From Candidatus Uhrbacteria bacterium (GTDB lineage: Bacteria > Patescibacteriota > Patescibacteriia > 2-12-FULL-60-25): a stretch of 64,000 bases of DNA. The stretch lies in the NCBI GenBank assembly GCA_030649995.1, contig JAUSEV010000034.1:19482-83481 (forward strand), given 5' to 3'. The position numbers were made by a program, and so were the translations under genes. Under the pieces are notes generated by a model that saw only the letters and a list, made by a program, of their open reading frames with translations, ran no database searches and was not told the origin of the DNA. How positions within the stretch are numbered: the stretch's first letter is position 1; every line of letters starts with the position of its first letter. Positions 1-54,638 of this stretch are shown here, piece after piece.

Positions 1-92
1 ACCCCGCAAATTCGCGCCGCAATAAAATGCCCAAACTCGTGAATCAACACGAGCACGGAGAGAACGGCGAGGAAGATAAGGAGAGTGAGCAT
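1..92 (-). CDS. rseP: RseP-like site-2 (M50) zinc metalloprotease, N-terminal fragment; the gene runs off the window start
   Basis: Minus-strand ATG at 92-90. Translation MLTLLIFLAVLSVLVLIHEFGHFIAARICG is a TM helix followed by an HExxH motif, as in RseP/RasP N-termini. Confidence 0.6.
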   Translation of the reverse strand, partial: MLTLLIFLAVLSVLVLIHEFGHFIAARICG

Positions 93-98
93 GGAAAT

Positions 99-452
99 TT
101 AAGCGGGGAAAAAACGAACGCCATTCTCTCCCACAATCGCCAATCGATCTTGAAATTTTGTCGCTGGAATTTCGGAAAGAAAAAATATCAATGTTTTGGC
201 TACGATTTCCGGCAAGGGCTTGCGCAGACGTAACAAAATAACGCCGACATGTTTTTGAATAGGGTAGCGAATAACGTTCCCAAAATCGCGATCATGCGTC
301 ACGATAATTCTCCGATCCTGCCGAGCTAGTCGAATAACCACATCATCAGACACTCCGGGAGTCATGTCACGAATCGAATGAACATCGTGACCCGCTCCTC
401 GTAATTTTTCTACAACCATGGGCGCGACATTCTCATCGGCGAGCAAGCGCAT
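99..452 (-). CDS. DUF5615-like (PIN-like) putative toxin
   Basis: MRLLADENV..VTHDRDFG pattern. Internal ATG at 452 lies a few nt downstream of the upstream DUF433 gene stop (457-459). Confidence 0.5.
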   Translation of the reverse strand: MRLLADENVAPMVVEKLRGAGHDVHSIRDMTPGVSDDVVIRLARQDRRIIVTHDRDFGNVIRYPIQKHVGVILLRLRKPLPEIVAKTLIFFLSEIPATKFQDRLAIVGENGVRFFPA

Positions 453-456
453 ACCC

Positions 457-714
457 CTAAGCCGGCTGGCGCACGAAAGCGTCTTCACGTTTTAACTGTT
501 GTACCGCAAAATTTACCGCAGCAAACACCGCTTCTTCGGAAACGCCATACTCACGAACAATGGCTGCCGATGTCATGCCTGCGGCAAGCAACTCTAAAAT
601 AAACTCAACAGAGAGCCGAGTGCCCGCAATAACCGGCTTGCCTCCTAAAACTTTTGGATCCTGATGAATAAGAACCTTTTGCTTAGGATGAATAACTCGT
701 TTGATTCGTTGCAT
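457..714 (-). CDS. DUF433-domain protein (antitoxin-like partner of DUF5615)
   Basis: DPKVLGGKPVIAGTRLSVEFILELLAAGMT matches the DUF433 signature. Sits directly upstream of the DUF5615 gene. Confidence 0.6.
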   Translation of the reverse strand: MQRIKRVIHPKQKVLIHQDPKVLGGKPVIAGTRLSVEFILELLAAGMTSAAIVREYGVSEEAVFAAVNFAVQQLKREDAFVRQPA

Positions 715-888
715 AAAACAAGGTTAGCATTTTTCACCCTCCTTTCGCAAGCCCATCCATTCATTCCATGGGCCGTACGAAAAAAAATGATCAATTCTCA
801 CATCAAGGCTTTTACAAAAATGTTACTAACCGAAGCTATAGTGTGAGATAGTAACAGAGATGAAAAACTGAAAACAAGAAGTCAGGGG

Positions 889-1265
889 AAATAATACAGC
901 GGGGATACTCGAGTGACGAGTTCCCCGCTCTGTGGGACACGTGGCTGTACTGGACAACACGCAACTGTAGCCAGCAAAAGAACACCTCGCGGAAGCCTGC
1001 GCAGCCGTGCGGTGAACTCCAAACGATCAGAAGGAAAGAAAGTGATACGGCCCGACCAGCCAACGTCGGACCCCGTGCACGACTTAACTCTGCCGAAGAA
1101 CGCCGTAGATTACCGAAGCGAACCGCACTTGACGCTACGAAGATGAAAAAAGAAAGGTGATGCGGCGGGTCAAAGAATCGACACGCCCCGTGCAGAACAC
1201 GACGCCACCGCGGATAAGAGTGCTTAGCTTGACGTGACGCAAGTAGGTCTAACTCAACCTGAGTG
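889..1265 (-). ncRNA. Noncoding cassette F (promoter to T1 terminator), unknown RNA family
   Basis: -35 TTGACT at 1299-1294 with a 17-18 nt spacer to a TAGTTA-like -10. Two internal H2 hairpins (1146-1193, 1033-1080), each followed by a CTTTCTTT tract. Ends in T1 hairpin 898-929 (AGCGGGGA..TCCCCGCT) plus a T-rich tract. No ORF with an RBS. Confidence 0.5.
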
Positions 1266-1305
1266 CCACTAACTAACCAAATTTTCCAAAAAAAGTCAAT
1301 CATTT

Positions 1306-1655
1306 AAAATTACAGCGGGGATGATCGAGTACGATCTCCCCGCTCTGCGCAAAACTTGACGTGACACAACTCTACCTGACATAACTCCGCCGAGGCTAAC
1401 GTCTATCTCTCTGTCATTGCGAGAAGGAGTCCGCGACGACGAAGCAATCTCTCCGCAGCCATCGAAGATTGCCACGCTTCGTATGACTTCGCTCGCAATG
1501 ACAGTGGTTTGATACCCGGTCAAATTCAATGTCTGAAAAAAAGAAAGGTGATACAACAGGCTGAAATGAATCAGCCCATTCCATGCTGCGCTACGCGATA
1601 GCGAACCGTACTGGAGAAAACCTCTCCTAACATCGCAGAACGCGATGAAGCACAT
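1306..1655 (-). ncRNA. Noncoding cassette E, carrying a MITE insertion
   Basis: -35 TTGACA at 1688-1683, 17-nt spacer, -10 TAAGTA. H2-like hairpin 1536-1577 followed by CACCTTTCTTTTTTT. T1 hairpin 1314-1344 followed by GTAATTTT. Confidence 0.5.
1400..1520. mobile_element. MITE copy 1 (TIR TGTCATTGCGAG..CTCGCAATGACA)
   Basis: Near-identical to 26782-26930 apart from a ~33-nt internal indel. Terminal inverted repeats at 1412-1423 and 1492-1503. Confidence 0.6.
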
Positions 1656-1699
1656 GGAATACTTATCAAAGAACAATCGTTTTGTCAAGGCTCATATCG

Positions 1700-1830
1700 A
1701 AAAAATACAGCGGGGATCGGGAGTGAACCCGTCCCCGCTCTGCGGTGTGGTGGACGTCACGCTAGTTCACGCAACGACGCCGGACGCTACGGTATAAGAA
1801 TAAAACACCCGAAAGGATACGAATCGTGAA
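1700..1830 (-). ncRNA. Partial cassette (3' module plus T1 only)
   Basis: T1 hairpin 1709-1739 preceded by a CACGCTAGTTCACGCAACG segment homologous to the cassette B/C 3' module. No own promoter seen. Lies directly after the CDS terminator. Confidence 0.35.
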
Positions 1831-1870
1831 AAGAAAAAGGCGGGTTCGGAAAGTTTCTCCGAATCCCGCC
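1831..1870 (-). terminator. Intrinsic terminator of CDS 1903-2700
   Basis: GGCGGGATTCGGAGAAACTTTCCGAACCCGCC followed by TTTTTCTT on the minus strand. Confidence 0.65.
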
Positions 1871-1902
1871 AGTTGTTGAAGTTCCGACTGCTATCCGATC
1901 CG

Positions 1903-2700
1903 CTACTTGCGGACCGACGTGACCCGCCACTTCGTGATTTGGAACTTGCCGAACGGCCCACGGCAGCCACCGCGGAAGGAACACAGACCGATCGCCGCAC
2001 CGGCCAGGAGGAACATGTCATACACGTGACGCTCGGTGAGTCCCGCGAGCTCGTGGAGCTTGAGCGTCATGACGAACTCCGTCGTCCACTTCTTGAACTT
2101 CGGCCGCACGATGCCGACGGCCGTGCCCGGTCCCGAACCGGCCCTCTGCATGCCGCGTCTCACGTCGTGGATCCACTCCGTTCCATCCGGGAACCGCAGG
2201 AACTCGCGGTCGATGGAGAGGAATGCGAAGAGCTTGGTCGTGTCCGCCGTGGAGATCCCGCCGCGGCCAACCTTGATGCCGCGCGCGGCTTCGGCGAGGC
2301 AGGCAAGCAAGTTCATGGTCGGGAACCCCAGCAACTGCCTCTTGCTATCGGGGTCATCGGGGTCGAAATAGAGCTTCTTCGTGGCCATGTCGCGCAGGGG
2401 AGCGGTTCGATCCGGGGGCTTGCGCTCCCCGCGGATGAGCACGTCGACGATGGTCTGCGGCCCCATCGCGTCGAGCAGGAGCGGTGATCCCCCCTGATTG
2501 GCGATACCAACATCGATGACCATCACGTGCTCGCGTCGCTTGAACCGCTCGATGCCGTCCCTGGCCATGATGTCGTCGTCACCGTTGTCGCCGGGTGCCG
2601 CCTCGGCTCCTTCGGCCTCGTTCGCGCCCTCTTTGCCTTCTCCCGCTTCCGGATCCTCCGTGGGATCGTCCTCCTCGGGCTTGCCAGGTTCTCTATTCAT
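1903..2700 (-). CDS. Hypothetical protein, acidic N-terminal tail; possible RAMP (Cas5/Cas7-like) fold
   Basis: GGAGG RBS 6 nt before the ATG at 2700. G+C-rich. GFPTMNLLACLAEAARG helix motif and C-terminal glycine-rich loop GLCSFRGGCRGPFGKFQI. Own TTGACA promoter at 2969-2964 with a ~230-nt leader. Confidence 0.7.
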   Translation of the reverse strand: MNREPGKPEEDDPTEDPEAGEGKEGANEAEGAEAAPGDNGDDDIMARDGIERFKRREHVMVIDVGIANQGGSPLLLDAMGPQTIVDVLIRGERKPPDRTAPLRDMATKKLYFDPDDPDSKRQLLGFPTMNLLACLAEAARGIKVGRGGISTADTTKLFAFLSIDREFLRFPDGTEWIHDVRRGMQRAGSGPGTAVGIVRPKFKKWTTEFVMTLKLHELAGLTERHVYDMFLLAGAAIGLCSFRGGCRGPFGKFQITKWRVTSVRK

Positions 2701-2981
2701 GGAGCGCCTCCGTGGTTTCGCAAAATGGGGTGATTGGGAATGTGCTGCCTCGCTCTAACCTCACCCCAGTGAAAGGTCAAAGCCAGATGTATCAGGTCAC
2801 CATATTCCAGGTTTCCCGTCAAGAGGCATTTTGCCCTATGATATAAGGTGTTGCTGCCCCGATCCGGGTCGAGGCACCTTGCTGAACGGAACCGAACTCT
2901 ACGTAACCTGACGACGCGGAACGGTATCTTCCACATATCTTTCTTAACCAAAAACATATTCTGTGTCAAGAGCCACATATA

Positions 2982-3336
2982 TAAAATTACAGCGGGGATA
3001 CTCGAGTGACGAGTTCCCCGCTCTGTGCAGAACCGTACACCACAACAGCTAAGAAGGCTCAACGTAGCCTAACGCTGCTGAAGATTATTGGAACGCGAGA
3101 ATTGAGATGTTGCGGCGGCCCGAAGAATTCTCGGGCCGCTCCATGCGCTGGCTGACCTAAGAGAGGTGGACGCAACTCCACCGGTCCCTGCTGAATTTTA
3201 TTCAACGACTGAAGAAGAAAGTTGAAAGGTGTTACGGCGGCCTGGCGAACTGCACCAGACCGCCCCGAGCGGTACAATGCGTGACTCGAGAAAGCGTGAC
3301 GAAAGTTGACGCGACACAGGCTCACTCAACAAGGTA
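2982..3336 (-). ncRNA. Noncoding cassette D
   Basis: -35 TTGACG at 3370-3365, 17-nt spacer, -10 TACAAG. H2 hairpins at 3214-3270 and 3103-3146. T1 hairpin 2991-3022 followed by GTAATTTT. Confidence 0.5.
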
Positions 3337-3379
3337 AAGACCTTGTAACAAAGATAACGAAGACCGTCAACCCCCGAAA

Positions 3380-3600
3380 AAATTACAGCGGGGATGATCG
3401 AGTACGATCTCCCCGCTCTGTGCAACACGCTAGGTTTCCTAACTCCACGCAACGGGTCCGGGCTGGACGCAACCAAAACGCACTGAATTTTGAGAAGATG
3501 TTACGGCGGCCCGAAGAGTTCTCGGGCCGCCCCGTGGGCGACCAAACTACACAGCACTATACGGGGCGATACAAAACGCAGCGTTAGTCTATGTAGTCAA
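3380..3600 (-). ncRNA. Noncoding cassette C
   Basis: -35 TTGACG at 3633-3628, 17-nt spacer, -10 TAAGAA. H2 hairpin 3491-3537. T1 hairpin 3387-3417 followed by GTAATTTTTT. No ATG codon in the transcript body. Confidence 0.55.
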
Positions 3601-3642
3601 GTATTTCTTAGCTGAAAAAATAAAATCCGTCAACCCCTAAAA

Positions 3643-3865
3643 ATAATTCAGCGGGGATGATCGAGTGCGATCTCCCCGCTCTGCGCTAAACACGACAACA
3701 CCCTAGGTTACCCAACTCCACGCAAGCGGACCGAACTGGGCGGTACGCAAAAAGAAAGATGTTACGGCGGTCCGAAAGAATCTCGGACCGCCCCGTGCAT
3801 TACGCAAGCGAGGGTTGATTAACGGCGCGAAACACTGCTTTGCTTGACGCGACTCTGCAGCGTAA
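3643..3865 (-). ncRNA. Noncoding cassette B
   Basis: -35 TTGACC at 3898-3893, 17-nt spacer, TG-extended -10 TAAACA. H2 hairpin 3750-3798. T1 hairpin 3650-3680 followed by GAATTATTTTT. Confidence 0.5.
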
Positions 3866-3911
3866 GATCTGTTTATCAAAAAATAAAATTTTGGTCAATA
3901 TTTGAATAAAC

Positions 3912-3945
3912 AAAAAAAACGGAGCTTGATTTCTCAAAACTCCGT
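3912..3945 (-). terminator. Intrinsic terminator of the helicase gene
   Basis: ACGGAG..CTCCGT hairpin followed by T8 on the minus strand. Confidence 0.65.
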
Positions 3946-3960
3946 GAGGAAAAAGTACAA

Positions 3961-5790
3961 CTACTTATGTAGCAGCGCGAGGGTGTCTTTGACTGCGCCT
4001 TCCATGTCGAGCTTGTCGCGATACGCCGACTGCAACCACTTGGGTAGACCGGCGAACAGGAACTTGGCGAACTGGCTCGACATGAAGAAGCACACACCTA
4101 CGTCCTCCGAACTGCGAATGTTGCGGCCACGCACCTGTAGTGCCTGCATGAGCACGCGGTAACGACGTAAAGCCCACACCTGACTCGCCGGAAAGCGCGC
4201 CTCCTCAAACTGGGCTTCCGGATCCTGCGGATGCGGATAACCAGGACGGAGGAAGAAGATCACCGGCGCCGCCTGACGAGGAAGATCAATCCCCTCGCCA
4301 TACTGCGCAGCGGTTCCCACGAGCGCCTCACCCCGACCTTCCAGAAAGTGCGCCGCCACCTGCTTTGCATCAGCGCCAAACCCATAGCTCAAGGCTTCGA
4401 GACTCTCCTCACCAGCGAAGCGCAAGAACTGCTGGCGCTCCGCATCAGACACGAGAACGATCAGCGACCGATGGCCGGCGCGCGCAAACCGCTTGGCCAT
4501 GTTCACGATCTGCCGCAGCGTCCAATTGACGTTGCGATGCCGCCGTTCGTCGAACGAGAGATCACGCGCGTCCCTCGGCACGAAGATGCGGGTCTGAAGC
4601 GTCGAGAACGGAGACTCGAAGGTGCGGAATGGATGACGAATGCCCGTCTCCCATCCAAAAACTTCCGAGTTGCCGATGGTGGCCGAGTACGCCACAACGT
4701 TCGGACCGAGCGCACGCCTGATGATCGGCGCCACAAAGTACGTCCGAATGCGCAAATGGTAACGGGCGCGCTTGCGGCCGGCCACGAATTCCGGATCGTC
4801 CTGCTTTAGATAGTAGGCAACCACATACTTGAGCGGCTGCCTCTCATCTTCGCCGACCGTGGCGTAACGCAGCGAGGTCAAGATCCTGGGGATGTTGCGC
4901 GTCAGGTTTTCCAGAACCTTGAGATCGCCCTTGTTCTCGATGGGGTCGAGCCTGCCGCTCCGTACCGCTTCGACCACGGCTCGTTCCAGCGCGCGACGAT
5001 CCATCTCGTCCAAGATCGCGATCAAGGACTCGACTTCCGTCACGGTGAAGAGGGATTGGTGACGCGCCGGCCGCCGACGAGCCATTCGCCGGAAGGCCTT
5101 CACGAACCGAACCATGATGTTTGCCTGTGCGCGAGCCAAATCCTTGAGGAGACGGGCAGCGCGCAGCAGGTGGAAGTCGGTGAGCGTGTACTCGAAGATG
5201 CCGCGAGCTACCTGTGCCAGGCGATGAGCCTCATCCACGACCACGAGCGCCGGATTTTGCTCCCGCCACCGAGTCACAAGCATCCGGTTCATGAGGAAGA
5301 ACGCCGTGGTACAAGCCACGACCTGTCCTCCACTCGTTTGCTGCATCGCTTGGTATTTGGCCTGAAAGTACGGGCACGGTTCCGCACCCGCCTCCTCCGT
5401 TTCGCCGGTTTCCTGATCTACCCGATGACCGCACTGCAACATGTAGCAAGGCGAGTCAGCCGCGTTCACATCCTCGACTCCGCGATCCACGTAGTACAGA
5501 CAACGGTACTCGCTGCGACCGAACACGGTGGTCACCTGACAGGGAAACGCTTCCTGCAGCTGGGCAACCAATGCCCTGGTAGGTGTCACGTAGAAACGCG
5601 GACCCTCATGATCGGCCAGTGCCAAAAGCGCCGCCATGCCGACCGCCGTCTTGCCGTCGCCCGTCGGCATCTCGAGCAGGACTCCGTCGTCTGATCCGGC
5701 GATCGCCTCGAGCGCAGCCGCTTGATTCGGACGAACCTCCGGAAACGGGAATGCCCGGCGCAGCCGGTCAAGCGGAATGAGCTTACTCAT
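3961..5790 (-). CDS. DinG/XPD (Rad3)-family FeS DNA helicase
   Basis: Walker A EMPTGDGKT and DEAH box VVDEAHRL. Four-Cys insertion between them (RCLYY, SPCYMLQCGH, EPCPYF). C-terminal GTAAQYGEGIDLP and FFLRPGYPHPQDP motifs. GGGAGG RBS before the ATG at 5790. Own TTGACG box at 5889-5884. Confidence 0.85.
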   Translation of the reverse strand: MSKLIPLDRLRRAFPFPEVRPNQAAALEAIAGSDDGVLLEMPTGDGKTAVGMAALLALADHEGPRFYVTPTRALVAQLQEAFPCQVTTVFGRSEYRCLYYVDRGVEDVNAADSPCYMLQCGHRVDQETGETEEAGAEPCPYFQAKYQAMQQTSGGQVVACTTAFFLMNRMLVTRWREQNPALVVVDEAHRLAQVARGIFEYTLTDFHLLRAARLLKDLARAQANIMVRFVKAFRRMARRRPARHQSLFTVTEVESLIAILDEMDRRALERAVVEAVRSGRLDPIENKGDLKVLENLTRNIPRILTSLRYATVGEDERQPLKYVVAYYLKQDDPEFVAGRKRARYHLRIRTYFVAPIIRRALGPNVVAYSATIGNSEVFGWETGIRHPFRTFESPFSTLQTRIFVPRDARDLSFDERRHRNVNWTLRQIVNMAKRFARAGHRSLIVLVSDAERQQFLRFAGEESLEALSYGFGADAKQVAAHFLEGRGEALVGTAAQYGEGIDLPRQAAPVIFFLRPGYPHPQDPEAQFEEARFPASQVWALRRYRVLMQALQVRGRNIRSSEDVGVCFFMSSQFAKFLFAGLPKWLQSAYRDKLDMEGAVKDTLALLHK

Positions 5791-5950
5791 GGATTCCTCC
5801 CACGCAGAACTTGGTCTGCGATTATCTGTCGTTGATGATGAAAAGGCCAAAAGCAAAATCATCTGACCATGAAATCTTCTTCTCGTCAAGAGCTGAAAAA
5901 AGCAAGAAAAATATCAACTCGCTCGTGAATGAAAAAATAAATACGATTCC

Positions 5951-5980
5951 ATCATCTTCTTCCGACCGTGAATAGATGAT
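5951..5980. promoter_or_regulatory. 30-nt palindrome A (ATCATCTTCTTCCGACCGTGAATAGATGAT)
   Basis: Inverted arms ATCATCT/AGATGAT around CGACCG. Lies ~60 nt upstream of the helicase -35 box. Same motif at 7174-7208 and 58739-58768. Confidence 0.45.
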
Positions 5981-6071
5981 AGAATTCTTGAAAGTTTTTT
6001 TAATCTCATCAATAAACTTTCACTGCTTATAGATAATACAAGCAAGGCATTCTAAAACTTATCTCAAAATA

Positions 6072-6515
6072 AAATAATACAGCGGGGATGATCGAGTTGC
6101 GATCTCCCCGCTCTGTGATGCGCTAAGCCGTGCCCTAGAGTACAAAACCGGACTGGGCTTTGGCTTACTTCGGGACACGAAGTGTAGAAGAAAGTTACGG
6201 CGGCCGGAGACGAGCTCCGACCGCCCCGTGCGCGACTCGACGGAAGTAAACGCGACCTGACCGTGGCGTGGGGTACGAATCCGTACCGAACGCCGAAAAG
6301 TCTCATCACATCACACCCGTGAAAGAAAGTTGCGGCCCCGAGTTGCCTCGGGGCCCCGTGCTGGAGCTTGCAAGACCACACCCAGCGTGACGGGGCAGAA
6401 CTACACGCCACGAAACAATGGTATGCGGAGGAAGAAAAAAGGACTTGCGGCGAGCCGATCAAAACCGCATCGACCCACCCCGTACAAAACTCTTGGCAAC
6501 CCTAGCTTCCATTAT
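6072..6515 (-). ncRNA. Noncoding cassette A
   Basis: -35 TTGACA at 6548-6543 with a TAAGGA-like -10. H2 hairpins at 6321-6360 and 6186-6231. T1 hairpin 6081-6112 followed by GTATTATTTTATTTT. Confidence 0.5.
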
Positions 6516-6557
6516 CTTCATCCTTAAACACAAATCTCTTTCTGTCAACCCTCAACT

Positions 6558-6583
6558 AAAAAAAACCACAGGTTGCCCTGCAG
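6558..6583 (-). terminator. Intrinsic terminator of CDS 6603-7094
   Basis: CTGCAGG-GCAA-CCTGTGG hairpin (two G-U pairs) followed by T8 on the minus strand. Confidence 0.55.
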
Positions 6584-6602
6584 TTACCATCAGAGAAAAG
6601 CT

Positions 6603-7094
6603 CTACCTGTTGCGGAAGGTCACGACAATATCGTTCCGACCCCACGTCCTCGGCTTGGGCGACGATTGGTCGAGATCGACAAGCCACAACCCCCACCGAC
6701 CGGACGATTGAAAGAGCACGGGGCCGCACCAGACCTTGGAATGCGGAGGCTGCTCACGAAAGCGCCGTTCGTAGGGTGGAATCGTCGAGTACGTCGCCTG
6801 CTGGTTGTCCGAGAGGATTCGTTCCTTGTTCTGGATGAGCCAGACGAGCCAAGCGGCCGTGTTGCCTTCGGCGTGGAGGCGGATCGACTCCGATTGGATG
6901 TCTCGGAGTGCCGATCGTCGCGCGTAGGAATGCAGCGTGAGAGCTTCAAACGTCCTACCTAATTCGCCACGCATGAAGTCCCAAGTTCTAAGAGCGGCTT
7001 CGACATACCCCAGGTCGAGTTCTTGTTCCACGCGGGCGATCAACTCCTTCGGAGTTACCTCTGGAACCGTGATCCTGTTCGTGTTCGATTTCAT
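6603..7094 (-). CDS. Hypothetical protein (163 aa), no recognisable domain
   Basis: GGAGGTGA RBS before the ATG at 7094 (MKSNTNRITVPE..). G+C-rich. Own TTGACA box at 7149-7144, 17-nt spacer, -10 TAAGGT. Confidence 0.65.
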   Translation of the reverse strand: MKSNTNRITVPEVTPKELIARVEQELDLGYVEAALRTWDFMRGELGRTFEALTLHSYARRSALRDIQSESIRLHAEGNTAAWLVWLIQNKERILSDNQQATYSTIPPYERRFREQPPHSKVWCGPVLFQSSGRWGLWLVDLDQSSPKPRTWGRNDIVVTFRNR

Positions 7095-7173
7095 CCGCTC
7101 ACCTCCTTTCAAGTAATGACACCTTAACACAAATAGGGCGCGTTGTCAAGCATGGGCCGTCTCACCAGTACGG

Positions 7174-7208
7174 ATGATGCCATCTTTTTCCGACCGGGAA
7201 AAGATGAT
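7174..7208. promoter_or_regulatory. Palindrome B (ATGATGCCATCTTTTTCCGACCGGGAAAAGATGAT)
   Basis: Same arms and core as palindromes A and C. Sits ~25 nt upstream of the -35 box of CDS 6603-7094. Confidence 0.45.
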
Positions 7209-7348
7209 AACGTTCACAAATGATGAGCATCTATAAAAACTATAGCCTTATTTTAGGTGCTTCAAGCAAAGCTTCGACAAACTTCTTTTTTGAATGAAAA
7301 TTCAACGTCGATACATTCATTATCAAAATAATTGCCATCCGTCAACAT

Positions 7349-7708
7349 TTAGCTCATTCCTCCCCCCATCTCCGACAACTCCTCTTCTTCCCGTTTCTTT
7401 CTGTGTTTTTTAGGTGTGTCGGTTTCTTCTTTTTTCTCCTCTGATCGTTTATGCAAATATGACAGCAACTGTTTTCCTCCTTCGGCGATGAATCCAAGAT
7501 ATTGCGCGGAGGCGCCGAGTTTTTCGCCGATCATCATGATCGCTCGCTCAAATCGTGCCACTTTTTCTCGCGTGTCACTCACCACTTCATTGGTTTGACG
7601 GACGAGCGTTGCAATCTCATACAATGCCCAGCACAAAAACACCGCCACAAACCCGATCGCGATGGCACTAATGAAATAAAGAAGCTCGAGAGAGGAGAGG
7701 GAAAACAT
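7349..7708 (-). CDS. Small membrane-anchored coiled-coil protein (DUF948-like)
   Basis: N-terminal TM helix, helical middle region and a K/E-rich tail. Backbone-like G+C. Confidence 0.45.
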   Translation of the reverse strand: MFSLSSLELLYFISAIAIGFVAVFLCWALYEIATLVRQTNEVVSDTREKVARFERAIMMIGEKLGASAQYLGFIAEGGKQLLSYLHKRSEEKKEETDTPKKHRKKREEEELSEMGGGMS

Positions 7709-7718
7709 ATTTAATGCA

Positions 7719-7946
7719 TTATATCATATCTGAAAAATCTTGCGCGGAAATATTTGCCTCTCGCAAAATACTATGTAGCAATCCTCGTCCAATATCCTCG
7801 CCGCCATGTCTGGGCACCAACGTCGTTCGACCATCCGGATGTTTAAAAAAGATATGCGAACCCCTTGTTCTGATCTCCTCAAAACCTACACGTTTCAAAA
7901 CCCGTATGACATCCCTCGCCCGAACGGACGGGAGGCGCGGACTCAT
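7719..7946 (-). CDS. hicA: HicA-family toxin
   Basis: VIRVLKRVGFEEIRTRGSHIFFKHPDGRTTLVPRH matches the HicA/YcfA signature. 4-nt overlap with the upstream hicB. Confidence 0.8.
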   Translation of the reverse strand: MSPRLPSVRARDVIRVLKRVGFEEIRTRGSHIFFKHPDGRTTLVPRHGGEDIGRGLLHSILREANISAQDFSDMI

Positions 7947-8191
7947 ACCCGAACCGTTTCTACCCCGACAAACGTCGGCTCATAGGAAAAACCTCGAATC
8001 AAATTTTTATATTGACTATCCGTTTGCGCTACTTCTAAACAGAGAGCGATGGCTTCATGCAGTCTCTTTTGCAATTGCTCTAACGTCTTGGCTTGAGTAT
8101 GACAGCCGGGCAGACCTGGGACGGAGGCCATAAAAAATCCGTCTTCGTCGCGCTGGATAATCACCTTAAATTCTTTCATCTTTTTGGACAT
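7943..8191 (-). CDS. hicB: HicB-family antitoxin (UPF0150 fold); start uncertain
   Basis: FKVIIQRDEDGFFMASVPGLPGCHTQAKTLEQL is typical of the HicB N-domain. Confidence 0.7.
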   Translation of the reverse strand: MSKKMKEFKVIIQRDEDGFFMASVPGLPGCHTQAKTLEQLQKRLHEAIALCLEVAQTDSQYKNLIRGFSYEPTFVGVETVRV

Positions 8192-54127: not shown

Positions 54128-54549
54128 GGGGATGAATCAGCATCGACGACGAACCTTTCACCATCATGCAAGCCGAGGGCGTTGGTCACCTCGTAAATCT
54201 CACCGACACAATGACAACTGCCAACGTCATTTCAAAAGTGAAGAACTTCATCGCTTCGGTGATGCAAGTTCCGACCTTTGCTCCGGCCCTCGCTTAAACG
54301 CGATTGTTGCCGGACCGATCCCCTCTTTGGCGTCTCAACGAAGAGGATCGATCGTCATACATTGAGGCTTGATCTCGCATCCGTTCTCGATTGCGAGATG
54401 ACAGGCCACGAGAACTGGCGCTTCCATGCCTCGTCCGTTCCCTGAAGGTGGCGTAAGATTCCGCCGAAAGGCGGATTGAGCGGTCTAAGCTTGTGAATGA
54501 ATGCGGGTTGAGTTTCGCTCGGACGGGGGTGCGATACCCCCCATCTCCA
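54128..54549 (+). ncRNA. ssrA: tmRNA
   Basis: 5' GGGGATGA pairs with 3' CATCTCC-A including the G3-U pair. T-arm GGGGGTGCGATACCCCC. Tag frame ends ..QVPTFAPALA-TAA. CCA is not encoded. Confidence 0.85.
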
Positions 54550-54638
54550 TAGTAAAATAAGCTTCTTAGCCTTTAGCTTCTTAGCTTGTTAGTTCAAATC
54601 TAAGAAGCTAAAAAGCTGACGCCTAAGAAGCTGATCTC

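Follow-up and report, generated by a model that had tools for sequence, protein, structure and literature searches.

A probable VIPR system with covarying hairpin tails in the chromosome of a Candidatus Uhrbacteria bacterium

VIPR is a CRISPR-related, RNA-guided system that was first described in 2026 (bioRxiv 10.64898/2026.04.26.720920, 10.64898/2026.04.26.720927, 10.64898/2026.10.15.759431). As described in the preprint texts, it comprises the RAMP protein Vipr, an accessory gene, and guide RNAs (vrRNAs), in which 9–16 YNNGG repeats lead into a structured tail that does not vary (10.64898/2026.04.26.720920, 10.64898/2026.04.26.720927). For the system of Escherichia phage SUSP1, the same texts describe one Vipr protomer per repeat, hiding the GGY bases, with the NN bases pairing with DNA and each third target base skipped; the 3′ end is capped by the tail, and it is from this end that the R-loop forms. 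The arrays described in these texts are ribozyme-interspersed, staggered or single-guide. The Methods name alternative vrRNA repeats (NNNGG, YNNNG and NNNNG) and, under ‘VIPR type classification’, predicted nucleases or helicases in types III–V, and in the text of a survey based on language models, non-canonical pentamers next to Vipr-like folds are reported for 21 clusters (bioRxiv 10.64898/2026.10.21.760802). The VIPR preprint texts mention neither Patescibacteria nor transcripts in which hairpins separate several guides and a tail of another class closes the last one. Here we analyzed 64,000 nucleotides (nt) of the chromosome of a Candidatus Uhrbacteria bacterium (assembly GCA_030649995.1, contig JAUSEV010000034.1; genome of 1.08 Mb, 99% complete), the whole of which is referred to as the window. 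A 6.3-kb island on its minus strand (~885–7150) is very probably a VIPR system, in which a recurrent hairpin, H2, forms the structured 3′ tail of the guide RNAs.

The island is organized into seven cassettes, each extending from a promoter-like box to a terminal hairpin, T1, and it contains the vipr gene (1903–2700), a helicase gene (3961–5790), a small orphan open reading frame (ORF) and, spread over the cassettes, about 16 intact and two decayed guides. Every feature by which VIPR is recognized at the sequence level was found there. Shared with the SUSP1 system (type II; PDB 36pp) are a small Vipr-homologous RAMP protein, guides in which a 5-nt unit with some fixed and some variable positions is repeated in tandem (10–18 units here, 9–16 in SUSP1), a conserved, structured tail that follows the repeats directly on their 3′ side, tandem guide-tail units around the protein genes, an adjacent accessory gene, and the lack of a CRISPR array and of adaptation genes. 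In contrast to SUSP1, the repeat is YNNNG, with the first G free, rather than YNNGG; two tail classes occur in one locus, H2 being internal and T1 terminal; the accessory gene encodes a DinG/XPD helicase instead of a DNA-binding protein; and the host is a Patescibacteria chromosome instead of a coliphage. A helicase accessory and a YNNNG repeat are also named, for VIPR types III–V and for the alternative-repeat VIPRs respectively, in the preprint Methods. Judged by its sequence, the H2/T1 system is best read as a new, helicase-associated example, with a YNNNG code, of the kind published in 2026, and not as a new regulatory device. The plain covarying hairpin tail, the two tail classes per locus, and the predicted multi-guide transcripts without ribozymes are variant features that are worth mentioning and do not call for a new category.

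The initial annotation of this DNA, made from the sequence alone, had reported nine copies of H2 on the minus strand, and all nine are present as located. A covariance model built from the copies detected two more, at 6489–6433 and 2886–2839 (the latter degenerate), in addition to its matches at 6365–6318, 6235–6183, 3802–3750, 3541–3489, 3274–3220, 3150–3098, 1590–1539 (degenerate), 1197–1148 and 1082–1033. All copies fold into a GGC-stem-loop-stem-GCC hairpin of 7–12 bp with energies of −11 to −24 kcal/mol. Copy A1 (6436–6484, minus strand like all that follow) is preceded by a tract of at most five pentamers and has a model score of 50.9 bits and a fold energy of −19.5 kcal/mol, while copy B (3750–3797) has the highest score, 64.8 bits. 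Both fold and model likewise define copies A2 (6318–6360; tail hairpin GGCCCCGAG/CTCGGGGCC), A3 (6183–6230), C (3489–3536), D1 (3220–3269), D2 (3098–3145), G1 (1148–1192) and G2 (1033–1077). Two copies are degenerate: copy E (2839–2881; 39 bits), which lies after guide E1 and upstream of the promoter-like box of vipr, and copy F (1530–1577; 29.4 bits), which has a 7-bp stem.

The paired stem changes had been taken as a sign that selection acts on the secondary structure of the RNA and not on the sequence. The stem variants quoted in support are correct, and the interpretation was upheld when covariation was measured on 15 H2 copies, 11 from the window and four from a related strain. Base pairs were formed in 92.8% of cells, and for seven of the 12 stem pairs both partners had changed, with 23 cells affected; the observed values were not reached in any of 500 shuffles. 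When the 3′ partner was moved by 1–3 columns, pairing dropped to 29–56%. The alignment had been fitted to the covariance model, which somewhat favours structure; even so, the observed values exceed the controls by a wide margin. The stems contain many G-U pairs, which would give A-C mismatches on the opposite strand and which fit an RNA read from the minus strand rather than DNA or the opposite strand. The conserved flanks of the initial annotation were confirmed as well, and the 5′ flank, CACGG, proved to be the final guide pentamer. Only the shape of the stem and its foot bases appear to be constrained, so the stems drift by compensatory changes as CACGG-GGC...GCC-GYAAC stays fixed.

Neither the H2 nor the T1 motif has a copy outside the island in the 1.08-Mb genome. 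H2 is therefore specific to the cassettes, and a generic genome-wide terminator, the alternative raised when the hairpin was first noted, is ruled out. The many copies in a small region, together with a true MITE-like (miniature inverted-repeat transposable element) sequence in cassette F (1411–1503), could also be taken to mean that H2 is a mobile hairpin of the repetitive extragenic palindromic (REP) or MITE type, or a site bound by protein at the DNA level and multiplied within the island. However, every copy lies on the same strand and keeps the phase of the pentamer tracts described below, no copies exist elsewhere in the genome, and none are found in both orientations or in unrelated contexts. 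Target-site duplications or terminal repeats do not flank the copies, the G-U pairs would be lost to A-C mismatches on the other strand, and the reverse-strand covariance-model scores are far below the forward ones. A mobile or DNA-level origin of H2 is on this evidence hardly credible.

A further regularity is found directly upstream of H2. In-register tracts of YNNNG pentamers, 10–18 units long, lie 5′ of every H2 and every T1 (16 tracts), and the hairpins abut the final pentamer in every unit. Nine H2 copies gave 124 pentamers when read backwards. Of these, 97% begin with a pyrimidine, 77% end in G and 17% in C, and positions 2–4 carry at most 0.06 bit each; the 105 pentamers preceding T1 follow an identical code. 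The spectral power of the tracts at periods of 5 and 2.5 nt exceeds that of shuffles. Genome-wide, 21 clusters of nine consecutive YNNNG pentamers were found, of which 15 fall in the island, on its minus strand. The other six are weak and tail-less, one of them lying inside the 16S rRNA, and were set aside as chance occurrences.

The guide tracts, all on the minus strand, are named after their units. Unit A carries A2 (6356–6425), which ends at H2, A3 (6226–6295), and A4 (6108–6177), which ends in T1, each with 14 pentamers. Unit B consists of B1 (3793–3862; 14 pentamers) and B2 (3676–3735; at least 12), and unit C of C1 (3532–3591; 12) and C2 (3413–3477; 13), with B2 and C2 ending in T1. D1 (3265–3329; 13), D2 (3141–3195; 11) and D3 (3018–3087; 14, ending in T1) follow. 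The strongest period-5 signal (z=9.9) belongs to tract E1 (2877–2926; 10), whose unit is completed, downstream of the vipr terminator, by E2 (1735–1794; 12, ending in T1). The remaining tracts are F2 (1340–1399; 12, ending in T1), G1 (1188–1262; 15), G2 (1073–1142; 14) and G3 (925–1014; 18, ending in T1). Guides B2, C2 and E2 (3676–3735, 3413–3477 and 1735–1794) have a similar 3′ half, TTGCG TGGAG TTRGG.AACC TAG.G TGTTG; by this likeness they are paralogous and may address the same or related targets. Cassette F seems partly decayed, its first guide having only about six good pentamers. Between its degenerate H2 and guide F2 lies the MITE-like element (1411–1503, minus strand), with terminal inverted repeats CTGTCATTGCGAG and CTCGCAATGACAG.

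T1 closes every cassette and consists of a hairpin, AGCGGGGA...TCCCCGCT, followed by a U-run. Its copies lie at 6068–6114 (ending unit A), 3637–3682 (B), 3374–3419 (C), 2978–3024 (D), 1696–1741 (E), 1301–1346 (F) and 885–931 (G), all on the minus strand. Each cassette starts with a TTGAC-N16–18-TAAGAA-like box, detected by a pattern scan. That of unit A, TTGACA-N16-TAAGGA (6521–6548), would serve as a promoter by its resemblance to the consensus; those of units B–G lie immediately downstream of the previous T1 (3870–3898, 3605–3633 and 3343–3370 in units B–D; 2941–2969, 1660–1688 and 1270–1299 in units E–G; all minus strand). The linkers after H2 are 15–25 nt long, C/U-rich, and without a promoter-like box.

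These features bear on the function first proposed for H2, in which each copy is followed by a U-rich tract and acts chiefly as an intrinsic attenuator or partial terminator, which could yield a short and a long RNA isoform. The U-rich tract itself did not hold up: what follows H2 is a C/U-rich run that begins 5–8 nt past the stem, or no such run at all. In the 8 nt after the stem, H2 has 0–4 U and T1 has 4–6, and three gene terminators have an immediate U-run; after H2, the first UUU comes at +5 to +8 or is absent. When a rho-independent terminator is defined as a GC-rich hairpin with a U-run within 0–2 nt, H2 falls outside the definition, and the distance of its U-rich run from the stem makes efficient termination unlikely. 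A stable, GC-rich hairpin with a pyrimidine-rich run behind it does have something of an attenuator, and related loci lend the model some weight: in L014 and L002 (loci of relatives are labelled L001–L014), homologous tails with an immediate UUUUUU and a new promoter behind them terminate single-guide units, and the terminal hairpins of L001 bear U-runs. However, the internal tails of L001 lack any U-run, a generic terminator scan does not call H2 (the same scan called no T1 and no TTGAC box either and is uninformative), and an attenuator would leave the pentamer register, the CACGG flank and the adjacent Vipr gene unexplained. Attenuation as the chief function of H2 is thus decidedly unlikely. 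Of the proposed isoforms, only a possible partial termination survives, H2 being by its sequence a poor intrinsic terminator. T1, by its sequence, is best explained as the tail of whichever guide comes last, and it probably also terminates the transcript. A further hairpin, the vipr terminator (GGCGGGATTCGGAGAAACTTTCCGAACCCGCC + TTTTTCTTTT; 1835–1875, minus strand), has a GGCGG...CCGCC foot like that of H2, with a U-run directly at the stem, and looks like an H2-type hairpin serving as a true terminator; Rfam gave only a chance-level NrsZ match at 1835–1875.

Further evidence for a VIPR system comes from the protein encoded by vipr (1903–2700, minus strand), a RAMP protein of 265 aa, of which roughly the first 55 form an acidic, disordered N-terminus. 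The ORF has no match in Pfam, NCBIfam or PADLOC and belongs to a family of 3212 cluster representatives at E up to 1e-3. When a family profile of 75 sequences was compared to all PDB sequences, the sole match was 36pp_D, ‘SUSP1 Vipr protein’ (E=4e-12, residues 2–192 of 202). The AlphaFold2 (AF2) model of the protein, with a predicted local distance difference test score (pLDDT) of 86.7, retrieved Cas7-type subunits (Cas7/Csm3/Cmr4) as all of its top 50 Foldseek matches in the PDB, and three matches in a viral structure library, to uncharacterized or RAMP-annotated proteins. In the alignment with SUSP1 Vipr, the residues that hold G2 and Y3 are retained (R138 corresponding to the invariant R199, W178 to F242, and R179 to R243), and those that read G1 are replaced (H17 by D and D177 by S). 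The replacement of the G1 readers fits the loss of the first G from the code and would, given this alignment and the published contacts, account for the relaxed YNNNG repeat. Residues 1–55 (2536–2700, minus strand) are acidic, of low complexity and disordered (pLDDT 52–64); this extension is also present in the closest strain and is absent or much shorter in the homologues of L002 and L004. The leader of vipr (2700–2830, minus strand; 170–290 in L007), about 100 nt from the promoter-like box to the start codon (CTGGGGTGAGGT...AGCGAGGCAGCAC...CAATCACCC), is around 80% conserved with the related strain, far above the neighbouring guides, and may be regulatory.

The presumed vipr-accessory (vap) gene next to vipr (3961–5790, minus strand) encodes a DinG/XPD-type superfamily 2 helicase with the Pfam domains DEAD, Helicase_C_2 and DEAD_2, the best PDB matches of which are XPD helicases. 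The pairing of such a helicase with a Vipr homologue (an ORF of about 200 aa) recurs in the Patescibacteria loci L001, L002, L004 and L014. A Cas7-like backbone and a DinG-family helicase are also combined in type IV-A CRISPR-Cas (DinG/Csf4), which raises the question of whether the locus is a divergent type IV system, the hairpins being repeats and the DNA between them long spacers. The helicase matched the PADLOC model typeIV_DinG (PDLC01439) over its full length with an E-value of 1.6e-40, the 265-aa protein has a Cas7-like fold, and the palindromic hairpins are spaced regularly at about 115–130 nt. However, the supposed repeats differ in their stems within one locus, and the supposed spacers all follow a strand-specific 5-nt code, which is unexpected for acquired foreign DNA. 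The curated Csf4 model (TIGR03117, cas_csf4) is matched only weakly by the helicase (E=0.003), and the sole PDB sequence match of the Cas7-like protein is Vipr, not Cas7. Unlike type IV-A, the island has only one RAMP gene, no Csf1, Csf3 or Cas6, and no CRISPR array. Cas1 (PF01867) was not detected in the 99% complete genome in a search that recovered its positive controls; the other island ORFs had no cas match in Pfam, NCBIfam or PADLOC, and the island has no homologue of Cas5, Cas6 or Cas8. A type IV identity is accordingly very improbable. The variable guide, the stable 3′ hairpin cap and the Cas7-like backbone also resemble Cas6-processed class 1 CRISPR RNAs (crRNAs), from which the locus differs in having no Cas6, non-identical stems, a gapped 5-nt code instead of a contiguous spacer, and no adaptation module. 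A protein sponge similar to CsrB was considered as well; like the type IV and mobile-hairpin readings, it was abandoned, since the anatomy of the locus is better accounted for by the register of the pentamers together with the homology to Vipr.

Comparison with relatives supports, at the level of sequence, the reading of H2 as the internal tail and T1 as the terminal tail of VIPR guide RNAs. The tail architecture, Y-A/G-C-C/G-G followed by GGC-stem-GCC, is found in L001, L006/L007, L013, L014 and L002. L001, in which more than 20 hairpins were detected, has long multi-guide units with internal tails without U-runs and terminal tails with U-runs. L014 and L002 have a separate promoter for every guide, and there the GGC...GCC hairpin is followed directly by UUUUUU, ending a single-guide unit. 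In a related strain, where Vipr is 82% and the helicase 75% identical, the syntenic tails are 72–81% identical and the variable guide positions merely 33%. Such slow turnover of tails and fast turnover of guides is the pattern expected of handles versus guides. As a separate observation, made at 1–1326 of L001, the large VIPR locus there, with more than 40 hairpin-capped guides, adjoins a DUF87/TrwB-like ATPase gene, a neighbour that suggests a conjugative or integrative element context.

By homology with SUSP1, each YNNNG pentamer would be bound by one Vipr protomer, which would hold the fixed G and Y and display the variable bases so that they pair, with gaps, with double-stranded DNA. H2 would cap a guide when another guide comes next on the transcript, and T1 would cap the last guide and end the transcript. 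Multi-guide transcripts may be cut in the 15–25 nt C/U linker by a host RNase, trimmed back to the hairpin, or partly terminated. In this scheme, filaments would assemble and be capped, DNA would be targeted and the helicase would be recruited; these steps are carried over from the SUSP1 work by analogy.

Several results weigh against a VIPR system at this locus. When the 16 guides were compared to the host genome for self-targets under nine pairing rules (NN or NNN, with skips of 0–3), the best matches equalled those of shuffled guides. The external scans used the published 1-nt-skip rule, from which YNNNG pairing may differ, and the 10 pentamers nearest the tail; four guides gave no match to viral contigs in four scans, and one full guide gave none in 401 Patescibacteria genomes at up to three mismatches. 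One guide had four matches (three distinct) in metagenome contigs, none of which extended to two further pentamers, and these were discarded as chance; the skipped bases in the matches agreed with position 4 at chance level. The tail is a plain hairpin with a drifting stem, unlike the sequence-conserved pseudoknot of SUSP1, so a capping role for it would be by analogy. Finally, the promoters are consensus-like boxes that the generic scan left uncalled.

The Rfam database was searched over the entire window at gathering thresholds and over 1–8000 with E up to 1, and returned only a transfer-messenger RNA (tmRNA) and two sub-threshold chance matches; hammerhead or other ribozymes were found neither in the window nor in seven related loci. 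The G+C content of the island exceeds that of its flanks, and Vipr was found in three of 31 close relatives, which together are consistent with a mobile accessory island.

The small symbiotic bacteria of the Patescibacteria phylum were believed to have little RNA-guided defence. With the assignment to VIPR, unexplained covarying hairpins can be annotated as part of an RNA-guided system with about 16 guides, in a genome without a CRISPR adaptation gene. The locus offers a compact natural example of a relaxed YNNNG code with matching changes in the two G1-reading residues of Vipr and, by analogy with SUSP1, would exemplify a tail recognized by shape and not by sequence, as well as a helicase as the accessory gene of a VIPR. 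It also suggests an annotation rule for VIPR arrays: covarying hairpins after strand-biased period-5 sequence, beside a protein that is about 200 aa long and carries a GIVRPxFxxW motif and a G-rich-loop motif. A more far-reaching proposal, which we regard as unlikely, is that the Vipr-DinG loci of Patescibacteria form a distinct lineage in which a structure-only hairpin tail doubles as terminator, H2 is a read-through derivative of it, and the system is intermediate between VIPR and type IV CRISPR-Cas. If so, H2 would be tuned for read-through by the shift of its U-run to 5–8 nt off the stem, allowing several guides per transcript, and the relative dosage of the guides would be set either by termination in graded degrees or by 3′ trimming up to the protecting hairpin, without a ribozyme or Cas6. 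Guide-hairpin units every 115–130 nt, a Cas7-like backbone and a DinG helicase would then together mark the intermediate, and the palindromic repeat of CRISPR would have had its forerunner in the tail hairpin.

The remaining gene of the island is the orphan ORF (6603–7094, minus strand), which encodes 163 aa and has its own promoter-like box and terminator. It has no match in Pfam, PADLOC or NCBIfam and no homologue by word search, and its AF2 model, built from the single sequence, is unusable (pLDDT 45.6). At its N-terminus it weakly resembles, with 30% identity along 50 aa and E=6e-5 against a small database, an ORF of 162 aa in L014 (377–863, minus strand), which occupies the equivalent place in the VIPR locus there; the L014 genome belongs to the same family. 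The 163-aa ORF may thus be a fast-evolving second accessory protein. Near-identical palindromes of the ATCATCT...AGATGAT type lie at 5945–5980 and 7170–7210 on the minus strand, immediately 5′ of the promoter-like boxes that precede the helicase gene and the 163-aa ORF, respectively, and may constitute a shared operator for the protein genes of the island. Unrelated to the island, the tmRNA gene lies on the plus strand at 54128–54552 (Rfam RF00023, 109.6 bits).

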